Counted from the stretch's first letter, positions 1,871-62,326 are shown. The stretch is 64,000 bases of DNA from an uncultured Chloroflexia bacterium (GCA_963709605.1 CAVPWX010000019.1:21120-85119); one strand, 5' to 3'. Translations and numbers: made by a program. Notes: a model not told the origin generated them from the letters alone.

Positions 1871-1947
1871 GGAGGGCCGTGCTAGACTCGCGCCGCCTCG
1901 CCGCCCCGACGTTTCAAGGCGTCTGCGCCGGAAGGAGCCGAGTCCCG

Positions 1948-2610
1948 TTGGACGATCCGCGCTCGACCACGACCGGCGAGCGCTCCTCCGCCGCCGAGCG
2001 GCCGTCCGCGCGGCCGTCCGCCCGCCCCGGCGACGAGGCGGCCGCGCGCCGCGACGAGATCCTCGTGGCGCGGGCCCTCGAGGGCGACCTCGGGGCGTTC
2101 AACCAGCTCGTGGAGGCCTACCAGGACCTCTGTCACTCCCTCGTCGCGCGCCTCGTCCCCGACCCCGACCAGGCCGCCGACGCGGTGCAGGAGGCGTTCT
2201 TCTCCGCGTACCGCAACCTGCGGACCTACCGCGGGCCCTCCTTCCGCGGCTGGCTGACGCGCATCGCCGTCAACGCCGCCATGGACCTCCAGCGGGCCCG
2301 CAAGCGACGCCCCGTCTCCCCCTATCCCGAGCTGGAGGACGAGTCCTGGCAGCCGACCGCCGGGCCCGACACCGACCCGGAGACGATCGCCGGCGCCGCG
2401 GAGCGCGGCCGGGTGCTCGCCGCCGCCCTGGCCGCCATCGCCGCCGACCAGCGGACGGCGATCGTTCTCTACGACGTCGAAGGCTACGACTACGCCGAGA
2501 TCGCCCGGCTGACCGGCGTCTCGCTGGGGACAGTGAAGTCCCGGATCCACCGCGGCCGGCTCGCCCTGCGCGGGCTGCTCGCCGACCGCATGGAACTCTT
2601 CCGCAGCTGA
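1948..2610 (+). CDS. ECF-family RNA polymerase sigma factor (sigma-70 regions 2 and 4)
   Basis: ORF 1879-2610. Motifs: LVEAYQDLCHSLV, DAVQEAFFSAYRNLRTYRGPSFRGWLTRIAVNAAMD (region 2) and TAIVLYDVEGYDYAEIARLTGVSLGTVKSRIHRGR (region 4 HTH). Start placed at TTG 1948 behind GGAAGGAG (1931-1938); GTG 1879 is also possible. Confidence 0.85.
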   Translation: MDDPRSTTTGERSSAAERPSARPSARPGDEAAARRDEILVARALEGDLGAFNQLVEAYQDLCHSLVARLVPDPDQAADAVQEAFFSAYRNLRTYRGPSFRGWLTRIAVNAAMDLQRARKRRPVSPYPELEDESWQPTAGPDTDPETIAGAAERGRVLAAALAAIAADQRTAIVLYDVEGYDYAEIARLTGVSLGTVKSRIHRGRLALRGLLADRMELFRS

Positions 2611-4998: not shown

Positions 4999-5084
4999 CC
5001 CGGGATGGCGGAATGGCAGACGCACCCGACTCAAAATCGGGCGAGGGCGACCTCGTGGGAGTTCGAATCTCCCTCCCGGGACCA
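4999..5084 (+). tRNA. tRNA-Leu (anticodon CAA), CCA encoded
   Basis: Cloverleaf drawn by hand. Acceptor CCCGGGA/TCCCGGG. Anticodon stem CCCGA/TCGGG with loop CTCAAAA. Long variable arm CGAGG-GCGA-CCTCG. T arm GGGAG-TTCGAAT-CTCCC. Discriminator A plus CCA. A TAGACT -10-like hexamer lies at 4984-4989. Confidence 0.9.
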
Positions 5085-5447
5085 GCCTGGCTCCACCCAG
5101 CGCTCCGTACAGCCCGACGCCGACGGCCGAGTGAGGCTCTCCGCCCGGCGGAGCAACAGCTCCTCACGTCGACCGGCGGTGATGGAGCCCGGCGCGACAG
5201 CCATCGCCCAGTCCCGGATCGTGATCTCGACCGTCCTGCCTGGCCAACGAACAGCGTCGCGGATCCCCGCGACGAGCCAGAACGCGAGGTACGCGGAGAC
5301 GAGGGCGCCCCAGCAGGCCACGAAGACGAGGTTGTGCGTGAGGAGCGACAGCACGGCCGCCGCGATGAGGAGTGGCAGGGCGAACACCGGGATCACGACG
5401 AGGAGGATCGCCAAGAGCCAGGGCATCCAGCCAAGCCAGTCCCGCAT
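5031..5447 (-). CDS. hypothetical membrane protein (about 2-3 TM helices)
   Basis: Minus ORF 5031-5927 with start set at ATG 5445-5447 behind GGAG. Sequence: MRDWLGWMPWLLAILLVVIPVFALPLLIAAAVLSLLTHNLVFVACWGALVSAYLAFWLV... GC3 bias is good. The last ~18 codons run antisense through the 3' half of tRNA-Leu, so the true stop is uncertain. Confidence 0.4.
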   Translation of the reverse strand: MRDWLGWMPWLLAILLVVIPVFALPLLIAAAVLSLLTHNLVFVACWGALVSAYLAFWLVAGIRDAVRWPGRTVEITIRDWAMAVAPGSITAGRREELLLRRAESLTRPSASGCTERWVEPGWSREGDSNSHEVALARF

Positions 5448-5640
5448 GCCGGGGAGACTCCCCGCCCCCAGCGCCCCGTCACGAGGCATCGGTGGCGAAG
5501 TGAACCCGGTCGCCCGTCTCTGGGCTGGCCGGGGCCGCTCGGTGTCGGCCAGTGGGGTCACGGCCGTGACGTTGCGATAGGCAGGAACGGTCCCGGGCTC
5601 CGGACCGGGCGTTCCGCTCCGGCTCGCCGGGGCAGGGCGC

Positions 5641-5784
5641 GCTCCGGGCGTCCGGGGGCCGTGACATAAGTCCTTGCGACCCGCGCGTTGCGCGCCGACG
5701 CTGGGCGGTTGGCGGGAGGCTCTGACGCGCGGCCCACGCTCCGGCCGCCGGGACCGCGCCGAGCCACTGGCGAGACCGACCCGC
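5641..5784 (+). promoter_or_regulatory. conserved promoter/leader module, copy A
   Basis: Box1 GCTCCGGGCGTCCGGGGGCCGTG (5641-5663). 78-nt core GGTTGGCGGGAGGCTCTGACGCGCGGCCC...GAGCCACTGGCGAGACCGACCCGC (5707-5784). It ends 27 nt before GTG 5812 (SD GGAGG 5801-5805). The promoter part is more diverged than in C, F and G. Confidence 0.6.
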
Positions 5785-5811
5785 GCTTGGGGCGTCCCCA
5801 GGAGGGTAGAG

Positions 5812-6356
5812 GTGCGCCGAGTCATCGTCGCTCTGTGTTCCATGGCCTTGCTGGCCACCGTGCTCGCGCCGGTCGGGGCGGCCAAGTCCATCCAGATGGC
5901 GCCCCTCATGCGGGGCGTCATCGACATGGCGACCTACTTCGGGCTGTCGCCCGACTGGTCCGACCTCCCGACGTGCCCGGTCGTCTCGAAGCAGAAGGTG
6001 AGTGACCCGACGGGCTGCTGGTACGGCAAGGTCAAGGGCGACATCAGCGGGACGATCGCCTTCTGGGAGGATCCGGCCGGCGTCGAGATCGTCCCGGGCA
6101 AGACGCTGAAGTTCTACGAGAAGTTCACCTTCTGGCCGAGCAACGGCAGCGGCTGGGTCATCGGCTACGACGTGGGCTTCTACGACCTGGTCACGGGCGC
6201 CTTCCGGGCGAGCGGCTGGGTCACGGCTCGTCGGCGGGAGAGTGGGCGGCCCTGCGCGGGCGCTGGTTCTACGAATGGGGCACGACCAGCGACCCCAGTG
6301 TCCTGCCCATCACCTCCCCCGCGACCCAGTTCATCATCACGAAGGTCAAGGGCTAG
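5812..6356 (+). CDS. hypothetical exported protein; apparent -1 frameshift near 6230
   Basis: GTG 5812 after a GGAGG SD. Signal-peptide-like VRRVIVALCSMALLATVLAPVGAAKS. The N-terminal part is in the frame of ORF 5674. The GC3 bias switches near 6230 to the frame reading EWAALRGRWFYEWGTTSDPSVLPITSPATQFIITKVKG, with stop TAG 6354-6356. Confidence 0.5.
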
Positions 6357-6495
6357 GGTCGGCTATCGCAAGGTCGACCCGCGCGAAGGCGACGGCCGCT
6401 TCGCCGACTCTCGAAGGCGCAACTGCGGCCGCGATGTCCCGACACACGGCCCCCGGCTCTGCACCGATGGCTTGGCTCCGCTTGCGGGCTGGGAC

Positions 6496-6667
6496 GCGCA
6501 CCGGGCGTCCGGGGGCCGTTCGCCTCAGATTCGCTGTGCCACCCCGACACGTGTATGCTCCGCCGACTCAGGGGGGAGGCATGGGAGCCGTCGGGCTCCC
6601 GCCAGCGCGGCGTCCCATACGGTCGCCCGACCGTCGCGCAGGGCCAATGGCGAGTCCGACCACCCTG
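6496..6667 (+). promoter_or_regulatory. conserved promoter/leader module, divergent copy B
   Basis: Box1 GCGCACCGGGCGTCCGGGGGCCGTTCGCCTC (6496-6526). TATGCT -10-like hexamer (6554-6559). The core variant CAGGGGGGAGGC...GGGCCAATGGCGAGTCCGACCACCCTG (6569-6667) has a replaced central hairpin. It ends 38 nt before GTG 6706. Confidence 0.55.
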
Positions 6668-6705
6668 ACCCCGGGCGCGCGTGCGCCCAGAAAGGAGGGG
6701 TCCCC

Positions 6706-7059
6706 GTGACCTCTCGCTCGCCTGGCGCCCGGCTTCGGCTCGTGGTCGTCGTCTCGATGGCCACAGCGGCCCTCGTGCTCGCCCCATCGGTGGCGGCGAA
6801 AACTCCCCCGGTCGCACCGGCACAGACCCTGACGCAGGCCTGCGCTCCGACCGGCGGCTCCCAGCCCATCGCCGGGGGATTCCGGGCGGGCCAGTGGGTC
6901 ACGTCCGCGACGCAGGGTTCCGTTCCGCGCGGCAGCTCCCAGCCCATCGCCGGGGGATTCCGGGCGGGCCAGTGGGTCACGTCCGCGACGCAGGGCTGCA
7001 GTCCGGGCGACCTCTACCCCCTCTCTGGAGGGTATCGGGCAGGTCATTGGGTTCCTTGA
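6706..7059 (+). CDS. hypothetical small exported protein with internal 26-aa repeats
   Basis: GTG 6706 lies 5 nt after AAAGGAGGGG (6691-6700). Signal-like RLRLVVVVSMATAALVLAPSVAAKTP. Repeats GSQPIAGGFRAGQWVTSATQG occur twice, with a third degenerate unit LSGGYRAGHWVP. Confidence 0.55.
   Translation: MTSRSPGARLRLVVVVSMATAALVLAPSVAAKTPPVAPAQTLTQACAPTGGSQPIAGGFRAGQWVTSATQGSVPRGSSQPIAGGFRAGQWVTSATQGCSPGDLYPLSGGYRAGHWVP
6857..6995 (+). repeat. two perfect 61-nt direct repeats, period 78 nt, inside CDS 6706-7059
   Basis: GCTCCCAGCCCATCGCCGGGGGATTCCGGGCGGGCCAGTGGGTCACGTCCGCGACGCAGGG at 6857-6917 and again at 6935-6995. The repeat is in frame (26 codons). Confidence 0.85.
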
Positions 7060-7192
7060 CGTGCCGCAGTCGCGACATGGACTCACGCTCGGGGCCGGAG
7101 GCTCTGTGATCCGCAGGTAGCGACCTGGGCCACAGCTCACGACCGTCCCTCGGCTGCGCACCGGGTGCTCCGCGCTCTCCTGGGGGTGGGAA

Positions 7193-7334
7193 GCGCACCG
7201 GGCCTCCGGGGGCCGTTCGCCTCTCGCCAGATGCCCGACCGCCGCGTACGGTGGGCGGTTGGCGGGAGGCTCCGACACGCGGCCCACACCCTGGCCGCCG
7301 GGACCGCGCCGAGCCACTGGCGAGACCGACCCGC
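7193..7334 (+). promoter_or_regulatory. conserved promoter/leader module, copy C
   Basis: Box1 (7193-7228). TCGCCA (7224-7229), 17 nt, then TACGGT (7247-7252). 4 nt later comes the 78-nt core 7257-7334. It ends 25 nt before ATG 7360. Confidence 0.6.
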
Positions 7335-7359
7335 TGCCTCCACGCACGGGGTCGCCGAG

Positions 7360-7801
7360 ATGCAGGTTCGTCAGTCAGTCGAGATCGCGGCCCCGCCGGA
7401 GCGGATCTGGCCGCTCCTGGTAGAGCCGGACAACGTCCTGAAGTGGTATCCCACGCTCCGGAGGTTCGAGTACGAGGATGCGGGGCAGCGAGGCCCCGGT
7501 GCCCGGGTCTACGCGGAGGAGAAGGCGTCGGGCATGCTCATGAAGCTTCCACTTCGTGATCACCGACTGGGTCGAGAACCGGACGGTCTCGCTCCACATG
7601 GTCTCCGGGACCGGGGTCAAGGGCTACGACCAGAGCTGGAAGGTGGAGCCGCTCCCGGCAGGGTCCCGCTTCACCTTCGAGGAGCACGTCGAGCTGCCCT
7701 ACGGCGTTCTCGGCAGCCTGCTCGGCAAAGTCGGACAGCGCAGCTCCGAGGCCCACGTCAAGGAGATGCTGGCAGAGCTCAAGGTGCTCGCCGAGGCGTA
7801 G
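7360..7801 (+). CDS. SRPBCC (START/Bet v1-like) superfamily protein; apparent +1 frameshift near 7549
   Basis: MQVRQSVEIAAPPERIWPLLVEPDNVLKWYPTLRRFEY...GMLMKL is in the frame of ORF 7165. It continues as (H)FVITDWVENRTVSLHMVSGTGVKGYDQSWKVEPLPAGSRFTFEEHVELPYGVLGSLLGK in ORF 7556-7801. An extra C sits in cttCCactt. Confidence 0.65.
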
Positions 7802-7988
7802 CTCGCCAATCCGCGTGCCCCCATGAGGGGTCCCGCCCCGCCCCGCTCGCTCCGTTATTGCGGGATGAGACCCGCACCGGGCGACCCGAGGGCCGTTCTG
7901 CGTCCTCGACCGGCGCATATCTCGGTAGCCGACGGGCCGAATTCGACCCCTCTCGACCGTCCCGCGACCCGCACCGCTGAGCACGAGA

Positions 7989-8086
7989 CGGGACGAAACG
8001 GAAGCCGCCGGACGCGGGGGGGGACTCAAGATCGGGCGAGGGCGACCTCGTGGGAGTTCGAATCTTCCTCCCGGGACCAGCCTGGC
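7989..8086 (+). pseudogene. degenerate second copy of tRNA-Leu; the 3' 64 nt form a direct repeat of 5028-5091
   Basis: 8023-8086 matches 5028-5091 with 2 mismatches (anticodon loop CTCAAGA; T arm TCTTCC). The 5' half (7989-8022) is only loosely similar and cannot form the anticodon stem or acceptor stem. Confidence 0.65.
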
Positions 8087-8383
8087 AGCATCACGAACGT
8101 CAGCGGGCCCATCCGGGCGCAGGAGTGACGAGCACCACGAGCGACGAGCGTACGTCGGCCCCGGATTCGAGGCAATCCGCGGCGGACAGTCGATGAGCTG
8201 AAGAGCAGGGAGGACGAGATGACCGACGAGGAGATCATCGACCTCGTCCGGGGGTAGCCAGCCGCCCGTCTGCTGACTGTCCCGCGCCCTCGCCTCCAGT
8301 GTGGGAACGGGACCCACCCGGCGACCGGGGGTCGCTCGGCTCCTCGTGTGAACCCAGCGGTTGGCGTCGGCCTCCCGGGTGCA

Positions 8384-8911
8384 CTACCCCTCCAATCGGG
8401 GGAGCGCCGCTTCGGCGGGTGCGGCCGCGGGCTCCGTCGGTGCGGCGGCCGCGACGGCTTCAAGAGCCTCCTCGGTCACCTCGTGGACTTCGGGGGTGCC
8501 GCCGAGTTCGGTGAGCTTGTTGGAGATCATCGCGGCTTCCGGATCTTCCTCCACGAGGACGCCGATCGCGGCCTTGCCGCCGGCGAGCTCCGCGGCGATG
8601 CGCTCGCGGTCCGCGTCCGTCAGCCCCAGGCCCTTGTGGTGGAAATGGCCGAGGATGGCGCCGCCGACCATCCCGGCGAGCAGGGTTGGCGGCGCGACCA
8701 CGGCCAGCACGAGGCCGATGCCGGCGCCCGTCTTGCTGCTCCGCGTACCCAGCTTGTGCTCCTTGATCTGGCCGTTCTCGTCGGCGACCAGCACGCCGAC
8801 AGGTCGGGGCATGACGTTGTTGTCCTTCTCCCAGGCCATGAGCGACTTCACCGCGGCGTCGGCGGTGGCCTCGTCGGCGAAGATCCCCAAGACCATCTGG
8901 TGAGCAGCCAT
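8384..8911 (-). CDS. membrane protein resembling the DUF1269 / glycine-zipper stress-protein family
   Basis: ORF 8384-8932 with start at ATG 8909-8911, 7 nt after GGAGGA. Sequence: MAAHQMVLGIFADEATADAAVKSLMAWEKDN...GAGIGLVLAVVAPPTLLAGMVGGAILG...GKAAIGVLVEED. Confidence 0.6.
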   Translation of the reverse strand: MAAHQMVLGIFADEATADAAVKSLMAWEKDNNVMPRPVGVLVADENGQIKEHKLGTRSSKTGAGIGLVLAVVAPPTLLAGMVGGAILGHFHHKGLGLTDADRERIAAELAGGKAAIGVLVEEDPEAAMISNKLTELGGTPEVHEVTEEALEAVAAAAPTEPAAAPAEAALPRLEG

Positions 8912-9121
8912 TCCAAGATCCTCCGATCTCATTGTCCGTCGGAGTCGTCAGCCAGCCGCGGCGGTGATGAAGGGGACTCCCGGGCGCATCACGCAATCCC
9001 GGACAGCAGGAATGCCGTTGACGGCGACAGCGGAATCGGTGTCATCGTCCAATGTAGGGGATACGGTCAACGAAGCCCAGACCCGCAAGCCGGGCTGCTG
9101 CAGTCAGGGCCGAGGCTAGCG

Positions 9122-9258
9122 GCGCTCCGTCCGGGGGCGGTTCGCCACGCGCCGAATGCCTGACACGCGCATATGGTCATGGACAGCGGGGGGCTCTGAC
9201 ACGCGGCCCACACCCCGGCCGCCGGGACCGCGCCGAGCCACCGGCGAGACCGGCCCGC
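9122..9258 (+). promoter_or_regulatory. conserved promoter/leader module, copy D
   Basis: Box1 variant GCGCTCCGTCCGGGGGCGGTTCGCC (9122-9146). TATGGT (9172-9177). Core GCGGGGGGCTCTGACACGCGGCCCACACCCCGGCCGCCGGGACCGCGCCGAGCCACCGGCGAGACCGGCCCGC up to 9258. Confidence 0.55.
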
Positions 9259-9758
9259 CGACGACCTCCCTCGGCAGCGGCGAGTCCACCGGCCAGCTCG
9301 ACGATCTCCGGGTCCAGGCGTAGCGAGCCCAGATCGTCCTGGATGCGATCGAGGTGCTGAAGGCGCGCCCTGACACCGACGCGCGGCAGATCGGCCTGAT
9401 GGGGATCAGCCAGGCCGGCTGGGCCATGCCCCGGGTGCTCGCGACGCACCGCCCCGCACCGGGCGCTCCGCTCTCCTCGGAGAGTTGGACGCGCACTGGG
9501 CGCCCGCGGGCCGCTGATCCCGTGAGAGACGACGCGCGTGAGCGTGCATGGGCCGCCGTGCACGACTCGATCGCCCGGATGCCGGGCTGGGCCGTGGGCC
9601 CGTCCACTCACCGCGGCGAGGGCACGACCTGGTACGTATCGGCGGTCGGCCTGCGGCGACGGGGACGGCAGGCGACACGCGAGGCGATCGCCGCAACCGA
9701 GACGACGGAGACTGCCACCCTGGGCGCCCTCGCCGTGCTGCTCGACGCCCGCGACTAG
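9259..9758 (+). pseudogene. mosaic gene remnant: internal fragment of an alpha/beta hydrolase with in-frame TAG, fused to an unrelated small C-terminal segment
   Basis: One frame reads ..LGSGESTGQLDDLRVQA-TAG(9321-9323)-RAQIVLDAIEVLKARPDTDARQIGLMGISQAGWAMP (GxSxG elbow). It then continues with ..HDSIARMPGWAVGPSTHRGEGTTWYVSAVG..TLGALAVLLDARD stop 9758. There is no N-terminus or start codon after leader copy D. Confidence 0.45.
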
Positions 9759-9898
9759 GGAACACGACCTATTGGGTCGACCCGCCGCGGACGCCCACAA
9801 TCCGAGGGCCGGCGCTGCTCCCAAAGGGGTGCCCCGTCGGCTCGGCCCCCGGCTCCGCACGGACCCACCGCTCTACTCCGGGAGGTGGGTGGGTCGGG

Positions 9899-9956
9899 GC
9901 ACCGGGCGTCCGGGGGCCGTTCGACTCTCGCCGGGCCCGAGGCCTGCTGCCACGAT
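9899..9956 (+). promoter_or_regulatory. box1 plus promoter without the structured core, copy E
   Basis: GCACCGGGCGTCCGGGGGCCGTTCGACTCTCGCC (9899-9932). TCGCCG (9928-9933), 17 nt, then CACGAT (9951-9956). A short unrelated leader follows, with a GGAGGG SD before ATG 10001. Confidence 0.5.
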
Positions 9957-10000
9957 GCGCTCACAACCAAGGGCTGGAGTGTGACGGAGGGTCGTTCTCG

Positions 10001-10279
10001 ATGTGCGCCATCCTGCTCGCCGCGCTTCTCGGGCCGCGAGCCATCAACGTGGTCTGGTGGCTGCTCGACTCGGAGCGCTGGGCCTCCACGTTCAGCGGCC
10101 CACTCGTGCCCATCCTCGGCATCCTGTTCCTGCCCTGGACGACGCTTGCCTACGTGGTGGTCGCGCAGGAGGGACTGACCGGCCTCGGGTTCGTCGTCGT
10201 CTTGATCGGGTTCTTCGCGGACGTCGGGACCTACGGCTCGAGCGCCTACACGAACAAGGACAAGATCGGCTTCAAGTAG
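10001..10279 (+). CDS. hypothetical small membrane protein (92 aa)
   Basis: ATG 10001 after a GGAGGG SD. Sequence: MCAILLAALLGPRAINVVWWLLDSERWASTFSGPLVPILGILFLPWTTLAYVVVAQEGLTGLGFVVVLIGFFADVG... It has hydrophobic helices and good GC3 bias. Confidence 0.55.
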   Translation: MCAILLAALLGPRAINVVWWLLDSERWASTFSGPLVPILGILFLPWTTLAYVVVAQEGLTGLGFVVVLIGFFADVGTYGSSAYTNKDKIGFK

Positions 10280-10460
10280 GCCTGGGTGCTCCGGTCGTGT
10301 CGGGGCCAGCCCAGCCGCCGCTCGGACGAGGTCTCTTCGGGACCCCCGCGGGGTGGGTGCGGCCGCGATAGCCCGTCACCACGGCCCCCGGCTCCGCTCC
10401 GGGCGCTTGCTCTCACCGGGAGAATCGAGATCCGGCGGCTGACGACAAGCGAATGATCTG

Positions 10461-11002
10461 GTGATGGAAGAGGACGAGACTCGAAGCGGCAACGGCGGGT
10501 CGATGCCCGTGGAGATCCAGGCCCTGATCTCCATGTTCGCCGCGGCCGTGCTGATGACGGCCGTGGCAGTCCTCGGTGTCTTCATCGCGGGCGAGCAGCC
10601 GCCGCGGCTCGTCCTCCCGGGAACGACGTGGCAGTGGACCGGCTCGACGACCGGCGCCGGTGAGGCCGAGCTCGTGGTGCCGGATCCCGCGGAGTACACG
10701 GTCCAGTTCAGCCGCGACGGCACGTACGAGGCCGCCGCCGACTGCAACCAGGTTGCCGGGACGTACCGCGTGGTTCCGGCCGGGAGGGCGGGGGCTCCAC
10801 GAACGGCCTGACGCTCGTGCCGGCTCCCGCCAGCCTCGCTTCCTGCGGCGCCGAGTCGCTGTCGGACCTGTTCCTGGAGCAGCTCGGATCGGCAAGCCGA
10901 TACGCGATCGCGGGCTCGCAGCTCACGATCACGCTCGCTCCGTCCGGCACGATGACGTTCGAGGCGGCGTCCCCGGTCGTCAGCTCCTCCCCGGGCGCCT
11001 AG
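10461..11002 (+). CDS. META (HslJ-like) domain protein with N-terminal membrane anchor; apparent -1 frameshift in a G-run at 10782-10795
   Basis: ORF 10461-10811 (..TTWQWTGSTTGAGEAELVVPDPAEYTVQFSRDGTYEAAADCNQVAGTYRVVPAG) continues in ORF 10817-11002 as GSTNGLTLVPAPASLASCGAESLSDLFLEQLGSASRYAIAGSQLTITLAPSGTMTFEAA. Together they form a complete META-domain pattern. Confidence 0.6.
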
Positions 11003-11219
11003 TGGGCACGCGGTGAGCGGGCCGCCTCACCCGGGACCTGCGCCGCCCCGGCCGGGGGCAGCGCGCCTGCCTGTGATCCCCTGTCCCGTGAGCACACCTG
11101 GGCCTGGACGACCGAGAAGGCATGGGCCGGGGACGCCCGACAGGACCCTGGATCGCGAGGCCGGGACCGGAGCGACGGCCCAACCTGCATGTCTCGTCTC
11201 GCTGGGCGAGAATTCGCGC

Positions 11220-11903
11220 ATGCAGGCGGACCGCTCTTCGCGCATCGCGTACCGCATGGTGATCGCCGCCATCGTCGGGGTGGCCACGCTGTTGCCCGGC
11301 GCAGGCACGGCCGGCAGCGCCACATTGCCGCCCGTGCTGCTGGTCCACGGGTTCCGAGGATCGCCAAGCGCCTTCGACACGATGGCCGCGCGCCTTGCTC
11401 GCGATGGTCGAGAGGTCCATGCGATCGCCCTGCCAGGCCAGGACAACATCGTCAACGCCAGGGCGATCCGCGACTTCGCCGCCGCCCATCACCTCCGGCG
11501 AGTCGACGTCGTCGCTCACAGCATGGGCGGGCTCTCGAGCCGCTGGTTCGCCAGGTACCTTCGTGGGAACATCAGCATCGCGCACTATGTCGCGCTCGGG
11601 ACACCGCAGTACGGCCTGTGGGCGACCTGCGCGGCGCCGCTCGACTACGGCGGCCAGATGTGCCCGGACGGGGCGTTCCTCCGCAAGCTGAACACCGGCG
11701 ACGACACCCCTGGAACCACCAGGTACACCTCGATCTCCAGTGCCGATGACGGAATCGTGCCAGCGTCGTCATCGCGTCTCGACGGAGGCGCCTGCCTCGT
11801 CCGCGACCGCGGCGTCACCCACGGCGGTCTCCTGTCCGACGCCCGGGTCTACCAGCAGGTCGTCCGTTCGCTGAACGGCCGCTGTCCGCCGGCGTTCGAC
11901 TGA
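11220..11903 (+). CDS. secreted alpha/beta hydrolase, lipase class 2-like
   Basis: ORF 11013-11903 with ATG 11220. Signal-like MVIAAIVGVATLLPGAGTAGS. Motifs LLVHGFRGS and the nucleophile elbow VVAHSMGGLSS. C-terminal GDDTPGTTRYTSISSADDGIVP..THGGLL (Asp/His region). Confidence 0.75.
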   Translation: MQADRSSRIAYRMVIAAIVGVATLLPGAGTAGSATLPPVLLVHGFRGSPSAFDTMAARLARDGREVHAIALPGQDNIVNARAIRDFAAAHHLRRVDVVAHSMGGLSSRWFARYLRGNISIAHYVALGTPQYGLWATCAAPLDYGGQMCPDGAFLRKLNTGDDTPGTTRYTSISSADDGIVPASSSRLDGGACLVRDRGVTHGGLLSDARVYQQVVRSLNGRCPPAFD

Positions 11904-12018
11904 CCATCGGCCTGTGGCAACGGCCCCCGATGGCCCATCGCGCCGGCGACGCCCAGAAGCGTCGGCACGACCCTTCTCCCGACGCACGAGCGAACCCGAC
12001 GACATGAGACAAGAGGCA

Positions 12019-12148
12019 TCCGGGGGCCGTTTGCCACTCGCCAGGTGCCCCTGCCCCCCCTAAGGTTGCAGGTTGGCGGGAGGCTCTGACACGCGGCCCG
12101 AACTCCGGCCGCCGGGACCGCGCCGAGCCACTGGCGAGACCGACCCGC
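12019..12148 (+). promoter_or_regulatory. conserved promoter/leader module, copy F
   Basis: Box1 from TCCGGGGGCCGTTTGCCACTCGCC (12019-12042). TCGCCA (12038-12043), 17 nt, then TAAGGT (12061-12066). 4 nt later comes the 78-nt core 12071-12148. It ends 23 nt before ATG 12172 (SD GGGAGG 12158-12163). Confidence 0.6.
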
Positions 12149-12171
12149 GGGTTGCCCGGGAGGCTTGTCTC

Positions 12172-12528
12172 ATGTCCGAGTTCGGACTCTTCGTCGGGTG
12201 GGGCCCGACGCGCGCCGGCAGAGAGGCTGCGGCGGATAGAGTGTTCGGGGAAGCGGTCGCCCACTGGAACGGGCTCAAGGCAGCCGGCGAGATCGAGAGC
12301 GTCGAGCTGGTGATCCTGGGCGCCCACGGCGGTGACCTGGCCGGCTTCGCGCTCCTCCGCGGTGATCCCGAGAAGCTGGCACGCGTCAACACGTCCCCGG
12401 AGTTCGCGCGCATCACGATGCGAGCCCAGACGTGCCTCGACAACGTCGGTGTCGTCCACGCATACGTGGACGACGGCGTCATGCGTGTCATGGGCGCCTG
12501 GCGGGAGGCGATCGCCGACCTGGTCTGA
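12172..12528 (+). CDS. hypothetical cytoplasmic protein (118 aa)
   Basis: ATG 12172 inside ORF 12073-12528. Sequence: MSEFGLFVGWGPTRAGREAAADRVFGEAVAHWNGLKAAGEIESVELVILGAHGGDLAGFALLRGDPEKL... GC3 bias is strong. I recognise no family. Confidence 0.6.
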   Translation: MSEFGLFVGWGPTRAGREAAADRVFGEAVAHWNGLKAAGEIESVELVILGAHGGDLAGFALLRGDPEKLARVNTSPEFARITMRAQTCLDNVGVVHAYVDDGVMRVMGAWREAIADLV

Positions 12529-12665
12529 CACCGAGGCCGCACAGGCTCGGATATCGGCCTCCGGCTGCGCGCCGGTCGCTCCGCTCCGCCGGGAGGCGGG
12601 ATGGGCACGTGCAGCGGGCGCCTCGGGGGCCGCCGCCTTCGGACGATGGCTACGTACATCGCGAC

Positions 12666-12806
12666 GTGCACCCGGCGTCCGGGGGCCGTTCGTCTCTCGC
12701 CATCTCGACGACCGTCGCGTACGGTGACTGGTAGCGGGAGGCTGGGGCACGCGGCCTGAACTCCGGCCGCCGGGACCATGCCGAGCCATTGGCGAGACCG
12801 ACCCGC
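12666..12806 (+). promoter_or_regulatory. conserved promoter/leader module, copy G
   Basis: Box1 GTGCACCCGGCGTCCGGGGGCCGTTCGTCTCTCGCC (12666-12701). TCGCCA (12697-12702), 17 nt, then TACGGT (12720-12725). 4 nt later comes the core 12730-12806. It ends 18 nt before ATG 12825. Confidence 0.6.
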
Positions 12807-12824
12807 GGGAAGCGAGCGATCCAG

Positions 12825-14825
12825 ATGCCCAGGTTGATGACCCGATCCACGTCCCGTCTGCGCACCCTCGCCGTCGGGCAGGCCCTCGTTCTCCTCGTCG
12901 CCCTCGGCGCGCCGATCACGGCGCTGGCGGCCGTCGACTCCGTGTCGCCGTCCTCGCTCGCCCAGGGCGCGACGAACCAGCTGGTCACGATCAACGGCTC
13001 GGGCTTCGAGAGGAGGTGCAGGACCTACAGCATCACCTTCTCCGGCAGCGGCGTGACCGCGACCGGCGTCCACCGGAGCAGCGACGCAACGATGACGGCC
13101 AGCGTCAGCGTCGCCGCGGATGCCCCTCTCGGCCCGCGCGACGTCATGGCCAGCGGCAGTGGCCGGTGCGACGGCTTCAGCTACATCGGGACCGCCAAGC
13201 TCACGGTCACCGCCGGCGGAGCGATCGCGACGAAGCTCGCGATCACCTCGATCAACCCACCGAGCCCCACTGCCGGCGCTGCCTTCAGCGTGACGGTCCA
13301 GGCGCAGGATGCCGCCGGCAGCCCGGCCACCGTCACGTCGGCCACCGGCGTCGCCCTGGGCCTCGCCGCCGGCACCGGGACGCTCGGCGGCACCCTGACC
13401 GGCACCATCGCCAACGGCACGAGCTCGGTCTCGATCTCCGGGGTCACCTACTCCAGGGCCGAGGCCGGGGTCCGCCTGACCGTCACCGGCACCAGCGGCA
13501 TGACGCTGGCGTCGGGCACCAGCGCGGCCTTCAGCGTCGTCGCGGGGTTCACGAGGCTGCAGCTGCTCGTCCCCGGCGAGCGGGCCGCCCCCGGCACGCC
13601 CTCCGGCAAGACCGGCACCCCGACCGCGCAGACGGCCGGCACCGCGTTCACCGTCACCGTCAACGCGGTCGACGCGAACTGGAACGTCGTGAGCTCGACC
13701 CACACGGTCGCGATCACCTCGAGCGACCTCAACGCCACCCCGCCCGCCAACGCCGCCCTCGCGGCCGGCACCAGGACGTTCAGCGTCACCCTCAAGACGG
13801 CCGGCAGCCGGACCGTCACCGCGACGGACGTCACCGACGCCACGAAGACCGCGAGCACAAGCCCCCCGATCACCGTCAACCCGGGCCCGTTCACCAAGCT
13901 CCAGCTGCTCGTCCCGGGCGAGACCGCCGCGCCGGGCACGGCAACCGGCAAGACGGGCGTCCCGACCACCCAGGCGGCAGGCGTCCCGTTCACCGTGACC
14001 GTCAACGCGGTCGACGCGAACTGGAACGTCGCGAGCTCGACCCACACCGTCGGGATCACCTCGAGCGACGCCGCCGCGACCCTTCCCGCGAACGCGACCC
14101 TCGCGGCCGGCACGAGGACGTTCGGCGTCATCCTCAACACGGCCGGCAGCCGGACCGTCACCGCCACGGACGTCACCGACAGGGCCAAGACGGCCAGCAC
14201 CAGCCCCCCGATCTCGGTCGTCTCGCCCGCCACGCTCTCGCTGACCCGCTCAAGGGGGATGGTCGCGTACGGCGAGACGGTCGGCTTCTTCGTGCAGCTC
14301 GGGCCGAACGGGGGGAACAGGTCGGTCGTCCTCGAGTACGCGAGCGTCGGCACCCCCTGGACGACGATCGCCAGCCTGGTGACCAACGCGGCGGGCGCTG
14401 CCGCCTTCACGTACGCGCCGACGCGGACCGGGTGGGTCCGGGCCCGCTTTGCTGGCGCGGCGGATCTCGGCGCCGCGACCAGCTGGCTCTGGCTCATCGG
14501 CGTCCGCCAGGTCGTGACCCTCGCACCGAGCCACACGGGTGTGATGACGATCGCCCAGGGGCGCTCGATCACGTTCCGCTCCACGGTCAGCCCGCTTCGG
14601 CCGGACCTCCTGCCGTCGGTCGTGACGTTCCGCTTCTACCGCAACGTCGGCGGGGCCTGGGTGCTCCGCTACCAGCGGAACGTGCCCACCGACGCCGCCG
14701 GCGTCGCCCGCACCACGTTCACGTTCGGTGCCCGTGGCACCTGGTACGTCCGCGCGTTCGCGCCGCGCACGCCCTACAACTCGATCAGCCGCTCCACCCC
14801 GCGCGAGGTCTTCCGCGTGCGGTGA
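12825..14825 (+). CDS. large exported protein with tandem bacterial Ig-like domains (putative surface/adhesin-like protein)
   Basis: ORF 12789-14825; the first codons lie in leader G, so the start is set at ATG 12825. Signal-like LRTLAVGQALVLLVALGAPITALAAV. There are repeated ~100-115-aa units with AGxxFxVTVxAxDAxxN and TxTATDVTD motifs. Confidence 0.75.
   Translation: MPRLMTRSTSRLRTLAVGQALVLLVALGAPITALAAVDSVSPSSLAQGATNQLVTINGSGFERRCRTYSITFSGSGVTATGVHRSSDATMTASVSVAADAPLGPRDVMASGSGRCDGFSYIGTAKLTVTAGGAIATKLAITSINPPSPTAGAAFSVTVQAQDAAGSPATVTSATGVALGLAAGTGTLGGTLTGTIANGTSSVSISGVTYSRAEAGVRLTVTGTSGMTLASGTSAAFSVVAGFTRLQLLVPGERAAPGTPSGKTGTPTAQTAGTAFTVTVNAVDANWNVVSSTHTVAITSSDLNATPPANAALAAGTRTFSVTLKTAGSRTVTATDVTDATKTASTSPPITVNPGPFTKLQLLVPGETAAPGTATGKTGVPTTQAAGVPFTVTVNAVDANWNVASSTHTVGITSSDAAATLPANATLAAGTRTFGVILNTAGSRTVTATDVTDRAKTASTSPPISVVSPATLSLTRSRGMVAYGETVGFFVQLGPNGGNRSVVLEYASVGTPWTTIASLVTNAAGAAAFTYAPTRTGWVRARFAGAADLGAATSWLWLIGVRQVVTLAPSHTGVMTIAQGRSITFRSTVSPLRPDLLPSVVTFRFYRNVGGAWVLRYQRNVPTDAAGVARTTFTFGARGTWYVRAFAPRTPYNSISRSTPREVFRVR
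13548..14231 (+). repeat. tandem duplication of a 342-nt (114-codon) Ig-like domain unit inside CDS 12825-14825
   Basis: FTRLQLLVPGERAAPGTPSGKTGTPTAQTAGTAFTVTVNAVDANWNVVSSTHTVAITSSD... (13548-13889) versus FTKLQLLVPGETAAPGTATGKTGVPTTQAAGVPFTVTVNAVDANWNVASSTHTVGITSSD... (13890-14231). Identity is high at protein and DNA level. Confidence 0.85.
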
Positions 14826-17486: not shown

Positions 17487-17504
17487 CGGGGGCCCCGGGG
17501 CGGC

Positions 17505-17599
17505 GCCGGGCGAGGGTGCCGCCGCCGGGCGAGGGTGCCGCCGCCGGGCGAGGGTGCCGCCGCCGGGCGAGGGTGCCGCCGCCGGGCGAGGGTGCCGCC
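17505..17599. repeat. five perfect tandem copies of a 19-nt unit GCCGGGCGAGGGTGCCGCC
   Basis: Units at 17505, 17524, 17543, 17562 and 17581, followed by a partial sixth (GCCGGC). The array is intergenic between the convergent TerB-like gene (stop 17486) and dnaE (stop 17662). Confidence 0.95.
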
Positions 17600-17661
17600 G
17601 CCGGCGCACGACGACGCGCGACGAAGATCGCCGGTGCGGCCGCGACGGGCCGGTTCCGCGA

Positions 17662-60204: not shown

Positions 60205-60566
60205 CGGGCGCCGGCCCCGCCTGCCCTCGACGCCGCGCTCGTCGTCGAGGACGCCCCGCCGAGGGGCTCTACGGCGCAGTGCTCGATGAGCGGGTTGGCG
60301 AGGAGCTCGCCTGCCAGCCGCTCCACGAGCGCGCGGGCGGCCTCCTGGTCGACGGCCTCCACGGTCAGCTCGACCCGCCGCCCCACGCGGACGTGGCCGA
60401 CCCCGGCCACGCCGAGGTGCCGCAGGCGCTGCTCCACGGCTCGCCCCTGCGGGTCGAGGATCCCTTCGTTGGGGGTGACGTTCACGGCGAACCGGAAGCT
60501 GCCGGCCGGCGCCGCGGCGGGCGCGCGATCCACGTCGGGTGTGCTCGTCGCGTCGGGCGTGCTCAT
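60201..60566 (-). CDS. purS: phosphoribosylformylglycinamidine synthase subunit PurS
   Basis: ORF 60201-60689 trimmed to ATG 60564-60566. Motif [29 protein letters not shown]. The stop overlaps the purN GTG (GTGA). Confidence 0.75.
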
Positions 60567-60763
60567 GGGGCGATGACGTCCTCCTCGAGGACGACGCCGG
60601 CCAGCCTGGCCGGGCGCCCACAGCGACGGGACCGGCGGAGTATAGCAGGGGGTTCCGGCGGCCCGGCGGCCTCCCAGGCCGCACCGCAAGAGGACGATCC
60701 GCCCGGGGTCCCGGTACCTTTCGGCGACCCGGGGGACGCGACGCCGAACCGTACGCTGCGCTC

Positions 60764-62326
60764 GTGGTTCGCTTGCTCGCAGGTCTGGGGCTCGTCGCCC
60801 CGGTCGCGGCCGTCCTCCTCGTCGCCTACGCGGTCTCCGGCGCGGCCCCGGACGATCGCGCCGGCCTCGCGGCGGCCGCGGGCGGGGCGCTGGCCGGGAT
60901 CGCCGTCCTTTCGGCGATCGTCTCTCTCTGGCTCCGGGCGCGCATCGTGCCGGTCGTGCAGGCCGTCGAGCGGATCGCCGCGGGCGACGTCGAGTCGCCG
61001 CTGCCCAAGCTGCAGGGGGGCCTGGGCGGACGGCTCGTCGTCGCCGTGGCGGCCGTGGCCCGGAACCTCGCCGAGACGCACGACGCGGCGACCACGGACC
61101 GGCTCACCGGCATCGCGAACCGGCCGGCCATCCTGGCGGGACTCTTCAGCGAGGTGGAGCGCGCTGGGCGCTACGACCGTCCCCTGGCCGTCGCCTTCGT
61201 CGACATCGACCTCTTCAAGGCCGTCAACGACATGTACGGCCACGAGGCCGGTGATGTCGTCCTGCGCGGCGTGGCGGCCACGATCCGGGCCAACCTCCGC
61301 GCAGCAGACACGGTCGGCCGCTACGGCGGCGAGGAGTTCATGGTCATCCTCCCGGAGACCGACGTCGATGCGGCGGCCGCCCTCGCCGAGAAGCTGCGCC
61401 AGCTCATCCTCGGCGCGAAGTTCGCGATCGAGGGCCACGGCCCGGTGAGCGTCACCGTCTCGATCGGCGTGGCGACGGGCGTGGGACGGACGCTCCGCGT
61501 GGAAGCGCTCGTGCGCGACGCGGACGCCGCGATGTACTCGGCCAAGGCGCTCGGCCGCAACCAGGTCTACCTCTTCGAGGAGCCCGACGAGGACGCCCGG
61601 GTCCCCCGGGCCCCGATCTCGCCCGAGGGGCGGGCGCGCGCCGTCGAGGTCGGGCAGCACGCCCGAAGCGCCGCGGAGCAGGCCCTCATCCAGACGCTCG
61701 TCCCCTACCCGACCCACCGCGGCCAGCCGTCACCGCTGATCGCGACCCTTTCCGTCCTCCTCGGTCGCCGACTCGGCCTGCCCGACGCCGACCTCGACCG
61801 GCTGCGGATCGCGGCCCTCCTCCACGACGTCGGGAAGCTGGCCCTCCCCGAGGAGATCCTCGAGAAGCCCTCCGCCCTCACCTCGCAGGAGTGGCAGGCG
61901 GTGGTCCAGCATCCCCGCATCGGGCAGGTCATCCTGGAGCAGGCGTCGGCGATCAAGGACGCGGTGCCGATCGTGCTCCACCACCACGAGCGCTTCGGCG
62001 GCGAGGGCTATCCGTTCGGGCTGCGCGGCCGGGAGATCCCGCTCGGGGCCCGGATCGTGGCCCTCGCGGACGCCTACGACGCGATGGTCCAGGATCGCCC
62101 CTACAAGCGGGCGATGAGCCACAACGAGGCGATCCGCGAGATGGCCCGTCATGCCGGCACCCAGTTCGACCCCGAGCTGGTGGAGGCCTTCATCGACATG
62201 TTCGGTGACGGGATCCCGGACGTCGATCCCTCGCTCGTCGCGCTCGTCGACCACGGCCCCGCGTCGCTGACCGGCCGGGCCGCCGCCCGGGCGGCGCGCA
62301 CGAGGCGCAGGACGGCCACGGGGTAG
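60764..62326 (+). CDS. membrane-associated GGDEF (diguanylate cyclase) plus HD-GYP (c-di-GMP phosphodiesterase) protein
   Basis: ORF 60539-62326 with start placed at GTG 60764. Two TM segments plus a HAMP-like segment. GGDEF domain with RYGGEEF. HD-GYP domain with LLHDVGK and [12 protein letters not shown]. Confidence 0.85.

Follow-up and report, generated by a model that had tools for sequence, protein, structure and literature searches.

A tRNA-adjacent array of c-di-GMP-II-GAG riboswitch aptamers with predicted promoters of their own in an uncultured Chloroflexia bacterium

Introduction

The canonical class II riboswitch for cyclic diguanosine monophosphate (c-di-GMP) combines a kink-turn with a pseudoknot, the latter being the place of its ligand pocket (PMC9495366, PMC7583470), the kink-turn being a described feature of class II riboswitches (PMC9495366). 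This RNA occurs in multiple copies per genome and its cargo consists of surface and secreted proteins (PMC9481103); in Paraclostridium, 59 doublets and 9 triplets of it lie upstream of a surface-anchor protein gene (PMC9481103). The subject of this work is a stretch of 64,000 nucleotides (nt) of DNA from an uncultured Chloroflexia bacterium (GCA_963709605.1, CAVPWX010000019.1:21120-85119), referred to below as the window, which carries between positions 5641 and 12806 an array of seven modules, A to G. Each module has the conserved sequence box1 (TCCGGGGGCCGTTCGCC), or a part of it, followed by a promoter-like region and, in all modules except E, by a structured RNA core that is a member of the GAG variant of the class II family (c-di-GMP-II-GAG, RF03169). 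The parent class is reported to be an ON switch. Weinberg et al. (2017, PNAS) reportedly proposed that the GAG and GCG variants may sense a signalling molecule of another kind.

The window copies share with RF03169 the helices, the kink-turn, the pseudoknot and the GGCGAGACCG strand. They differ from it in a P1 helix of only about 5 bp, which is so short in this clade because a putative promoter occupies the place of the model's outer P1, and in the divergent copy B, which has an inserted hairpin and a U at the variant-defining position; furthermore, the model describes the aptamer only, whereas the fixed promoter, box1 and a platform composed of a CGTCCC motif and a Shine-Dalgarno (SD) sequence lie outside it. 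With the canonical class (RF01786; Clostridium and Clostridioides; 3Q3Z) they have in common the architecture, the clan (CL00127), the surface and secreted cargo and the presence of several copies, but they fit the GAG variant best and not the parent, their host is a member of the Chloroflexota with about 72% GC and not of the Firmicutes, and their platform is predicted to be translational, while the best-studied parents use transcription or splicing. At the pseudoknot bulge the window copies have AGA, where the canonical RNA of 3Q3Z has AA. The GCG variant (RF03170) is one base apart from the GAG variant (A to C, GGCGAGACCG versus GGCGAGCCCG), and in one related locus (L175) five GAG copies and one GCG copy occur together on one strand; in the window, the base at that position is A in the five canonical copies and U in B.

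Two broader comparisons are also of use. As in the tandem and multi-copy c-di-GMP regulons, many copies of one second-messenger riboswitch would control surface proteins here, but the window has one aptamer and one promoter per gene, spaced 0.7-2.9 kb apart, and no tandem aptamers in one leader. As in intergenic repeats that carry promoters and in the attC arrays of integrons, a unit of about 100-190 nt lies between unrelated genes of the same strand in a variable, tRNA-adjacent region, but in the window the unit keeps a fixed geometry to the start codon, and a functional RNA family is part of it.

Six aptamers of a catalogued family

The whole window was scanned with the Rfam models (cmscan), the gathering score of RF03169 being 40 bits. 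Five copies match this family above that score (61.2-76.6 bits, E = 1e-9 to 1e-13) and over its full length (model positions 1-86), namely aptamer A at 5706-5790 (core 5712-5784; 72.4 bits), C at 7256-7340 (69.6 bits), D at 9180-9264 (61.2 bits), F at 12070-12154 (76.6 bits, the top-scoring copy) and G at 12728-12812 (63.7 bits, with two mismatches in P3), all on the + strand. The divergent aptamer B (6566-6670, +), delimited by score, fold and alignment, reaches 33.3 bits (E = 0.0018) in a permissive Rfam scan and thus stays below the gathering score, and the same permissive scan gave no Rfam match in the stretch of module E. RF03169 outscores the other models of the clan for every copy; the window copies also exceed the gathering score of another clan member (five lower-scoring overlapping matches), and the parent RF01786 is not the best match. 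The sole other Rfam match at the gathering threshold in the window is a tRNA.

The window holds six c-di-GMP-II-GAG aptamers, five canonical and the divergent B. The RNA is already catalogued, the canonical copies being ordinary RF03169 members and B an outlier, and by score, helices, kink-turn and pseudoknot the copies belong to the class II c-di-GMP clan without belonging to the canonical class. The original prediction, made from the sequence alone, had held that the core fits no known riboswitch or leader family, and it had itself named an Rfam match above the gathering threshold as the outcome that would make the RNA known and not new; the matches at 61-77 bits are of that kind, and the claim fails. 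Its further suggestions, that the core could be a ligand-binding switch and that the conserved unit is the regulatory element and not the cargo, are supported, the core being a riboswitch aptamer at the predicted 5' end of the mRNA.

With high confidence, the locus as a whole is read as a set of GAG-variant aptamers, each with its own promoter and probably with translational control, which serve an envelope or secretome regulon and have spread as a cassette. This reading starts from family identity, the compatibility of the fold, the fixed geometry of promoter and SD sequence and the spread across genomes, all of which are seen in the sequences, and extends to a predicted transcription start, a probable translational control, a candidate ligand and a putative function of box1.

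The repeated nature of the array is clear from the sequence between 5400 and 13200, where all seven modules lie at the positions first proposed, every one on the + strand. In a repeat search of the window, A, C, D, F and G are grouped in repeat families of 131-134 nt with 66-86% ungapped identity, and box1 forms a separate family. The 22-nt box1 pattern has five matches at no more than three mismatches in the 64-kb window, against 0.03 expected by shuffling, and all five are confined to 5.6-12.7 kb. A MAFFT alignment of eight regions gives the common order of upstream element, box1, -35/-10 pair and core. The repeats are genuine and greatly exceed what chance would give. The proposal of an array of promoter and structured-leader modules is therefore borne out in position, strand and order by the sequence, the repeat search and the alignment; the modules do not begin at box1, however, as had been supposed, since the conserved unit reaches about 55 nt further upstream.

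Related aptamers were sought in the GTDB species genomes with a structure-based pattern, which gave 118 loci, about 75 aptamers being left after the removal of chance matches. Matches in coding sequences of Streptomyces and other actinobacteria were set aside as chance, with coding-like conserved flanks and no match to the aptamer hidden Markov model. The remaining aptamers are nearly all found in metagenome-assembled genomes (MAGs) labelled Chloroflexota, "uncultured Chloroflexia", Candidatus Limnocylindrales/Limnocylindria or CSP1-4. By its housekeeping genes the window is closest to two of these aptamer-bearing MAGs (DNA identity of 78% and 74% in the polA region), so that its source very probably belongs to the Limnocylindria-type Chloroflexota. 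In 12 related loci, 25 further RF03169 matches and one RF03170 match were obtained.

Structure of the aptamers

The aptamer folds into a 5-bp P1, a 3-bp P2, a kink-turn (a UCU bulge and tandem G.A pairs), P3, and a pseudoknot in which the P3 loop (CCGG-CCGCC) pairs with the 3' strand GGCG-AGA-CCG. Fold statistics were taken over 70 aligned aptamers, in which the core is almost invariant. P2 is paired in 100% and P3 in 84%, the inner P1 pairs are kept in 51-68 of the 70 sequences, and the pseudoknot is paired at 98.9% for CCGCC/GGCG and at 88.8% for CGG/CCG; because its pairs almost never vary, the latter figures speak for compatibility and not for covariation. The real structure has 81% of its cells paired, versus 30-42% in slid controls, and 13 pairs are changed on both sides versus 8.8 in shuffles, a covariation that is modest and above the shuffles. 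At the sequence level, the kink-turn reads GGC-UCU-GA...C-GA-GCC, with G19, G56 and A57 invariant and A20 conserved in at least 90%. For the six outermost P1 pairs of the Rfam model, in contrast, pairing is only about 45% in this clade.

These results refine the helices drawn in the original prediction. Its P1 (GCGGG/CCCGC) and P3 stand, while P2, drawn with five pairs as GGCTC/GAGCC, has three conserved pairs (GGC/GCC). The nested helices are compatible over the relatives, but the kink-turn and the pseudoknot had been overlooked, and the near-invariant strand that had been taken for a joining strand, GGCGAG-ACCG, pairs with the variable loop and CCGGCCGCC as the pseudoknot.

The pocket strand GGCGAGACCG, found in A, C, D, F and G, carries the nucleotides that define the GAG variant. 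Aptamer B has U at the position that separates GAG from GCG (GGCGAGUCCG in the alignment) and is neither; its extra 20 nt fold as a hairpin between P2 and P3, and its P1 is kept through compensatory changes (CAGGG/CCCUG). Aptamer D has the substitutions A12G and U63C at otherwise conserved positions. The pocket position also varies inside single arrays, being GGCGAG-A-CCG in the GAG copies, -C- in the related locus L175 (1197-1282, - strand) and -U- in window copy B (6650-6660); this A/C/U variation may tune specificity or may be tolerated.

Predicted promoter and control of translation

Promoter positions were counted from the G of GCGGG in 70 upstream regions of family members. There is an enrichment of A at -14 (32/70), of T at -10 (33/70), and of T and then G at -39 to -37, and TANNNT begins at -15 in 13 sequences versus 0-3 at any other position. 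A -35/-10 pair thus stands at a fixed distance from the aptamer in about 70 relatives, nearly all of them Limnocylindria-type Chloroflexota MAGs, and this enrichment supports the proposal that TCGCCA, 17 nt and TA(C/A)GGT form a sigma70-type -35/-10 pair. Because of the fixed distance, the transcript is predicted to start about 3 nt before P1, and the outer Rfam P1 would be unpaired in this clade because those bases would lie upstream of the transcript start. Each aptamer would accordingly have a sigma-70-type promoter of its own and so lie at the extreme 5' end of its mRNA.

In the window, the TCGCCA hexamer with a 17-nt spacer is found in C (7224-7229; TACGGT at 7247-7252, in keeping with the family-wide signal), F (12038-12043; TAAGGT at 12061-12066) and G (12697-12702; TACGGT at 12720-12725). 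Module A has TTGCGA, 17 nt and GACGCT (5674-5702) at a position that fits the family-wide signal, B has TTCGCT (6530-6535), 18 nt and TATGCT (6554-6559), E has TCGCCG (9928-9933), 17 nt and CACGAT (9951-9956), and in D a truncated box1 and a promoter-like region occupy 9122-9177 (TATGGT at 9172-9177), all of these being promoter-like by sequence and on the + strand. A promoter of the extracytoplasmic function (ECF) type, read from box1 on either strand, was considered and rejected, its spacing being unlike GAAC-N16/17-CGTC and the -10 keeping A2 and T6 in a housekeeping-like manner. As a separate observation, a gene for an ECF-type sigma factor (Sigma70_r2 and Sigma70_r4_2) lies at 1879-2607 (+), 3 kb upstream of the array, and keeps its synteny in both of the closest genomes.

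In most of the 70 leaders, P1 is followed at 16-30 nt by the start of an open reading frame (ORF) that has an SD-like sequence. In the window, the module ends at 5784 with GTG at 5812 in A, at about 6668 with GTG at 6706 in B, at 7334 with ATG at 7360 in C, at 12148 with ATG at 12172 in F, and at 12806 with ATG at 12825 in G; the SD sequence is AGGAGGG (5800-5806) in A and GGGAGG (12159-12164) in F. No terminator-like site was found in the leaders by a terminator scan. Since SD and start codon follow P1 so closely, leaving no room for a terminator, control at translation initiation is most likely, and ligand binding would then govern translation initiation of each downstream gene. Minimum free energy folds of the whole leaders gave no consistent alternative structure.

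A second conserved motif, CGTCCC, is present in 24 of 69 leaders versus a background of 1.6%, 4-9 nt after P1 and 0-3 nt before the SD sequence, and copy A of the window carries it (GCGTCCCC, 5792-5799). Its extended form (G)CGTCCC shows complementarity to GGGAC(C)GC in the 3' strand of P3 and, to a lesser degree, to GGGAGGC on the 5' side. With RNAduplex, the motif against the P3 3' and pseudoknot strand gave a mean z of +0.33, with no support for pairing, and against the 5' strand GCGGGAGGC a z of -0.30 overall and -0.88 in the leaders that bear the motif. In the thermodynamic model, forcing the aptamer lifts the unpaired probability of the stretch from SD to AUG from 0.37 to 0.47.

Genomic setting and spread of the cassette

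The array starts about 0.5 kb after a tRNA-Leu(CAA) gene (4999-5084, +), which was found by ARAGORN and gives the Rfam tRNA match at 55.8 bits. A repeat search revealed an att-like direct repeat on the + strand, whose first copy (5028-5091) comprises the 3' 57 nt of the tRNA-Leu gene and 7 nt more and whose second copy (8023-8086) is an orphan 3' part of tRNA-Leu; the two are identical at 62 of 64 positions (97%), lie 3 kb apart and bracket modules A to C, no integrase being present between them. A search of the related loci with the repeat (blastn-short, a short query) returned no match. In the two closest genomes (L042 and L085) a tRNA-Leu(CAA) gene lies 1-2.7 kb upstream of an aptamer on the same strand, and other arrays are also tRNA-adjacent, L019 directly after tRNA-Pro and L122 by a tRNA-Leu 3' end. 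The window array is flanked by housekeeping genes (polA exonuclease, dnaE, gatAB, purH, metG, ligA, groES/EL and uvrD).

Among the related loci, L175 has six aptamers in 5.7 kb (one of them best matched by the GCG variant), L119 four in 8.5 kb, and L011 and L066 three each, those of a given contig always on one strand. Arrays of 3-6 aptamers per 5-8 kb, often beside tRNA genes, are normal in this lineage. Window positions 7137-7339 align at 81-89% identity to L019, L034, L103, L011 and L082, where the sequence stands before different genes. The alternative raised in the original prediction, a promoter and leader cassette spread by recombination, fits such a unit of about 190 nt before unrelated genes elsewhere. 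This unit, made up of the upstream element with box1, the promoter and the aptamer, would have spread by duplication in tRNA-adjacent variable islands of Limnocylindria-type Chloroflexota.

Partial copies of box1 or of the upstream element are also present in the window at 7866-7900, 9481-9521, 10376-10420 and 12612-12635 without an aptamer after them, which suggests repeated rearrangement inside the island. In the metagenome loci L119, L162, L184, L212 and L167, box1 and promoter are followed by the first 25 nt or so of the aptamer (GGCGGGAGGCTCTG...) and then by a different leader that the five have in common (...GACGGGCGCGACGCCGACGGATCAT); this may be either a recurrent disruption or another leader variant. 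Further metagenome loci (L124, L175, L183, L126, L127, L121 and L169) have a second repeat family with the palindrome-like GCGACTTATCGCGAC just upstream of the box1 cassettes. Outside the array, a 19-nt unit (CGCCGCCGGGCGAGGGTGC), whose length is not divisible by three, occurs five times in tandem at 17501-17623, by the end of a 1293-amino-acid (aa) ORF on the minus strand.

Genes downstream of the aptamers

Domain scans agree with the claim that the downstream genes are unrelated. Gene A (5812-6356, +) encodes a small exported protein that carries a signal peptide, and gene B (6706-7059, +) another small exported protein, neither with a Pfam match; gene C (7360-7801, +) encodes an SRPBCC protein (Polyketide_cyc2, PF10604, E = 1.8e-19 on the joined translation). 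After aptamer D there is no intact ORF but a hydrolase remnant alone (9321-9470), an alpha/beta-hydrolase fragment with a GISQAG motif, and a gene for a 92-aa membrane protein (10001-10279, +) follows module E. Gene F (12172-12528, +) encodes a 118-aa protein with no Pfam match and is conserved together with its aptamer as a unit in genome L095 (78.6% DNA identity), and gene G (12825-14825, +) encodes a 666-aa exported repeat protein with a weak IPT/TIG match. Two of these genes contain internal repeats: gene B has a 78-nt tandem duplication (91%) at 6831-6986, and gene G has 300-nt copies spaced 342 nt apart (85%) at 13547-14188.

Reading-frame breaks, one in each gene, were found in gene A (about 6225-6240), gene C (about 7548-7556) and a META-domain gene (10461-11002; about 10790-10817). 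The GC content at third codon positions is high on both sides of the breaks, being 0.95 on each side in gene A. The broken frames and the fragment are either pseudogenes in a decaying island or assembly indel errors.

The proteins downstream of aptamers in 56 relatives include SnoaL_2 (five), Polyketide_cyc2 (four), methyltransferase (three), TPR in lipoproteins (two) and collagen-repeat (two) proteins, and most of the others have N-termini of signal-peptide or lipoprotein type and no domain. This heterogeneous cargo would constitute an envelope or secretome regulon that answers one small-molecule signal, which may be a second messenger, namely c-di-GMP or one related to it. At 60539-62323 (+) the window encodes a 595-aa protein that has a GGDEF domain (GGEEF motif) and HD_5/HD-GYP-type domains, from which it follows that c-di-GMP is probably made in this organism and probably degraded there too.

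Box1 and the rival explanations

Box1 is the most conserved stretch of the module, and as (G)TCCGGGGGCCGTTCGCC it abuts the -35 hexamer in every copy. The alignments reveal that about 55 nt upstream of it are also conserved (CCCCCGGCTCCGCACCGGGCGCTCCGCTC...GGATGGGACGCGCACC), with the consensus CCCCCGGCTCCGCACCGGGCGCTCCGCTC-(short hairpin)-GGATGGGACGCGCACCGGGCGTCCGGGGGCCGTTCGCCTCTCGCCA. By alignment and box1 matches, the upstream element lies on the + strand at 5588-5667 in module A (box1 at 5641-5667), at 6447-6525 in B (a perfect box1 at 6499-6524), at 7140-7252 in C (box1 at 7196-7221), at 9843-9956 in the aptamer-less module E (box1 at 9900-9925) and at 12550-12725 in G (a box1-like copy at 12612-12635 and box1 at 12669-12694), the spans given for C, E and G including the promoter, and in F the 3' part of box1 and the promoter occupy 12019-12066. 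Coding potential of the element was considered and rejected: every frame is open, which a GC content of 72% leads one to expect, and the copies differ by indels and in frame relative to the neighbouring ORFs. A metagenome scan seeded with box1 alone gave at least 120 contigs and 133 sites with enough downstream sequence. An aptamer follows box1 at a fixed 33-39 nt in 92 of these 133 sites, several others having a truncated aptamer; among the aptamer hits of the window and the GTDB loci, only 17 of 71 have a box1 match (at no more than seven mismatches). Box1 also stands before genes that lack an aptamer, in module E and in three copies of L019, each of the latter before a small membrane protein gene.

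A role at the level of DNA, as an operator or promoter element, is favoured for box1, with passive co-duplication as a close second and the terminator and recombination-site readings less likely. In the favoured case, which is put forward tentatively, box1 and the sequence upstream would form a protein-binding operator or activator site (or an UP-like element) by the -35, that is, a second, transcriptional input beside the riboswitch. Its position against the -35 hexamer as the most conserved stretch argues for this, as do its retention in copies that lack the element's 5' half (D, F, L092 and L065), its presence before genes without aptamers, a direct repeat of CGCACCGGGCG inside the element, and the RNAalifold consensus of -7.4 kcal/mol, whose covariation term of +0.48 lends no covariation support to a long hairpin, so that the conservation is at the sequence level, as for a DNA site. 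On the other side, the riboswitch does not need box1, since most family members elsewhere are without it, and the tight coupling of box1 and aptamer in the metagenome scan could mirror the recent duplication of one cassette. That last point leads to the reading, somewhat less favoured but quite possible, in which box1 and its upstream sequence have no function of their own and are a hitch-hiking flank copied in a recent, lineage-specific expansion. The fixed distance to the aptamer at the box1-seeded sites, with truncated aptamers at several of the others, is consistent with it, and the spacer between -35 and -10 (GATGCCCG.CCGCCGCCTACGGT) common to the copies points to shared descent of the whole unit; but the element is about 80% or more identical between GTDB species representatives, versus 72-78% for coding DNA, and the aptamer-less copies keep box1 and the -35 while their leaders are unrelated.

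The imperfect palindrome of about 75 nt that ends in box1 (GGCCCCCGG ... CCGGGGGCC) could instead act as an RNA hairpin, a terminator or insulator against read-through from upstream, and indeed A, B, C and E each fold as one long hairpin ending at CCGGGGGCCG (-42 to -54 kcal/mol), and in B, C, E and G a distance of 80-90 nt separates the element from the stop codon of the same-strand gene before it. This is nonetheless unlikely, given weak fold z-scores (-0.6 to -2.5), no U-tract, a terminator scan that is empty at the element, an alignment fold without covariation for the outer stem, and the retention of the 3' arm only in D, F and many relatives. Very improbable is an integron-like system of gene cassettes in which the repeated element is a recombination site and not regulatory, despite a resemblance that lies in small, unrelated same-strand genes, mostly of unassigned function, separated by a conserved imperfect palindrome, in the tRNA gene with its att-like 64-nt direct repeat beside the array, and in close relatives that share modules but differ in gene content. 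The ORFs between 5 and 15 kb showed no integrase or other recombinase, nor did the 25 commonest of the 56 Pfam families matched in the rest of the window, and no attC core sites or target-site duplications were seen. The core sites of attC are RYYYAAC and GTTRRRY; unlike these, the element reads GTTCGCC at its 3' end and lacks a conserved AAC at its 5' end. Moreover, the unit holds a bona fide riboswitch aptamer and a promoter in fixed geometry to the next start codon.

Some points weigh against the overall reading of these modules as promoter-borne, translationally acting riboswitches of one regulon. The promoter hexamers of the modules give 0 matches in an E. coli-type consensus scan, a failure that is expected of so strict a consensus at 72% GC. 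The native aptamer masks the SD sequence no better than shuffled ones (0.366 versus 0.386, p = 0.078), and thermodynamic modelling does not establish an ON or OFF direction for these aptamers. Covariation is thin, most core pairs being invariant or changed on one side alone, because the aptamers are so strongly conserved. A part of this array may be decaying, as broken cargo frames and an aptamer D without cargo suggest. Lastly, we know of no confirmed ligand for the GAG variant, a literature search having given only lists of model names.

Implications

With the Rfam matches, an apparently unfamiliar RNA becomes a catalogued one, and the main novelty claimed for it in the original prediction falls. 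Two features look new, namely box1 abutting the -35 hexamer and the CGTCCC motif before the SD sequence in a third of the leaders, and both are conserved elements that stand unexplained. The remaining interest therefore lies in the orphan ligand, in the cassette of box1, promoter and aptamer and its spread in tRNA-adjacent islands, and in the CGTCCC platform motif. The fixed geometry from promoter to P1, for its part, accounts for the lack of pairing in the Rfam model's outer P1 in this clade.

A bolder interpretation, offered as speculation and held to be rather doubtful, is that the GAG variant senses a signalling nucleotide other than c-di-GMP, and that the full cassette (box1 operator, promoter, aptamer and CGTCCC-SD) is a two-input module copied dozens of times per Limnocylindria genome into tRNA-adjacent islands; it would then control a large, fast-evolving secretome regulon, with the A/C/U variation in the pocket tuning or changing the specificity.

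The GAG variant is, to our knowledge, an orphan riboswitch candidate, and this lineage offers hundreds of near-identical aptamers of it. Their simple, probably translational platform and clear regulon (secreted, lipoprotein, SRPBCC, SnoaL and methyltransferase proteins) make them good material for the identification of the ligand, and arrays such as this one may also serve for learning how second messengers are used by uncultured Chloroflexota of soils and sediments.

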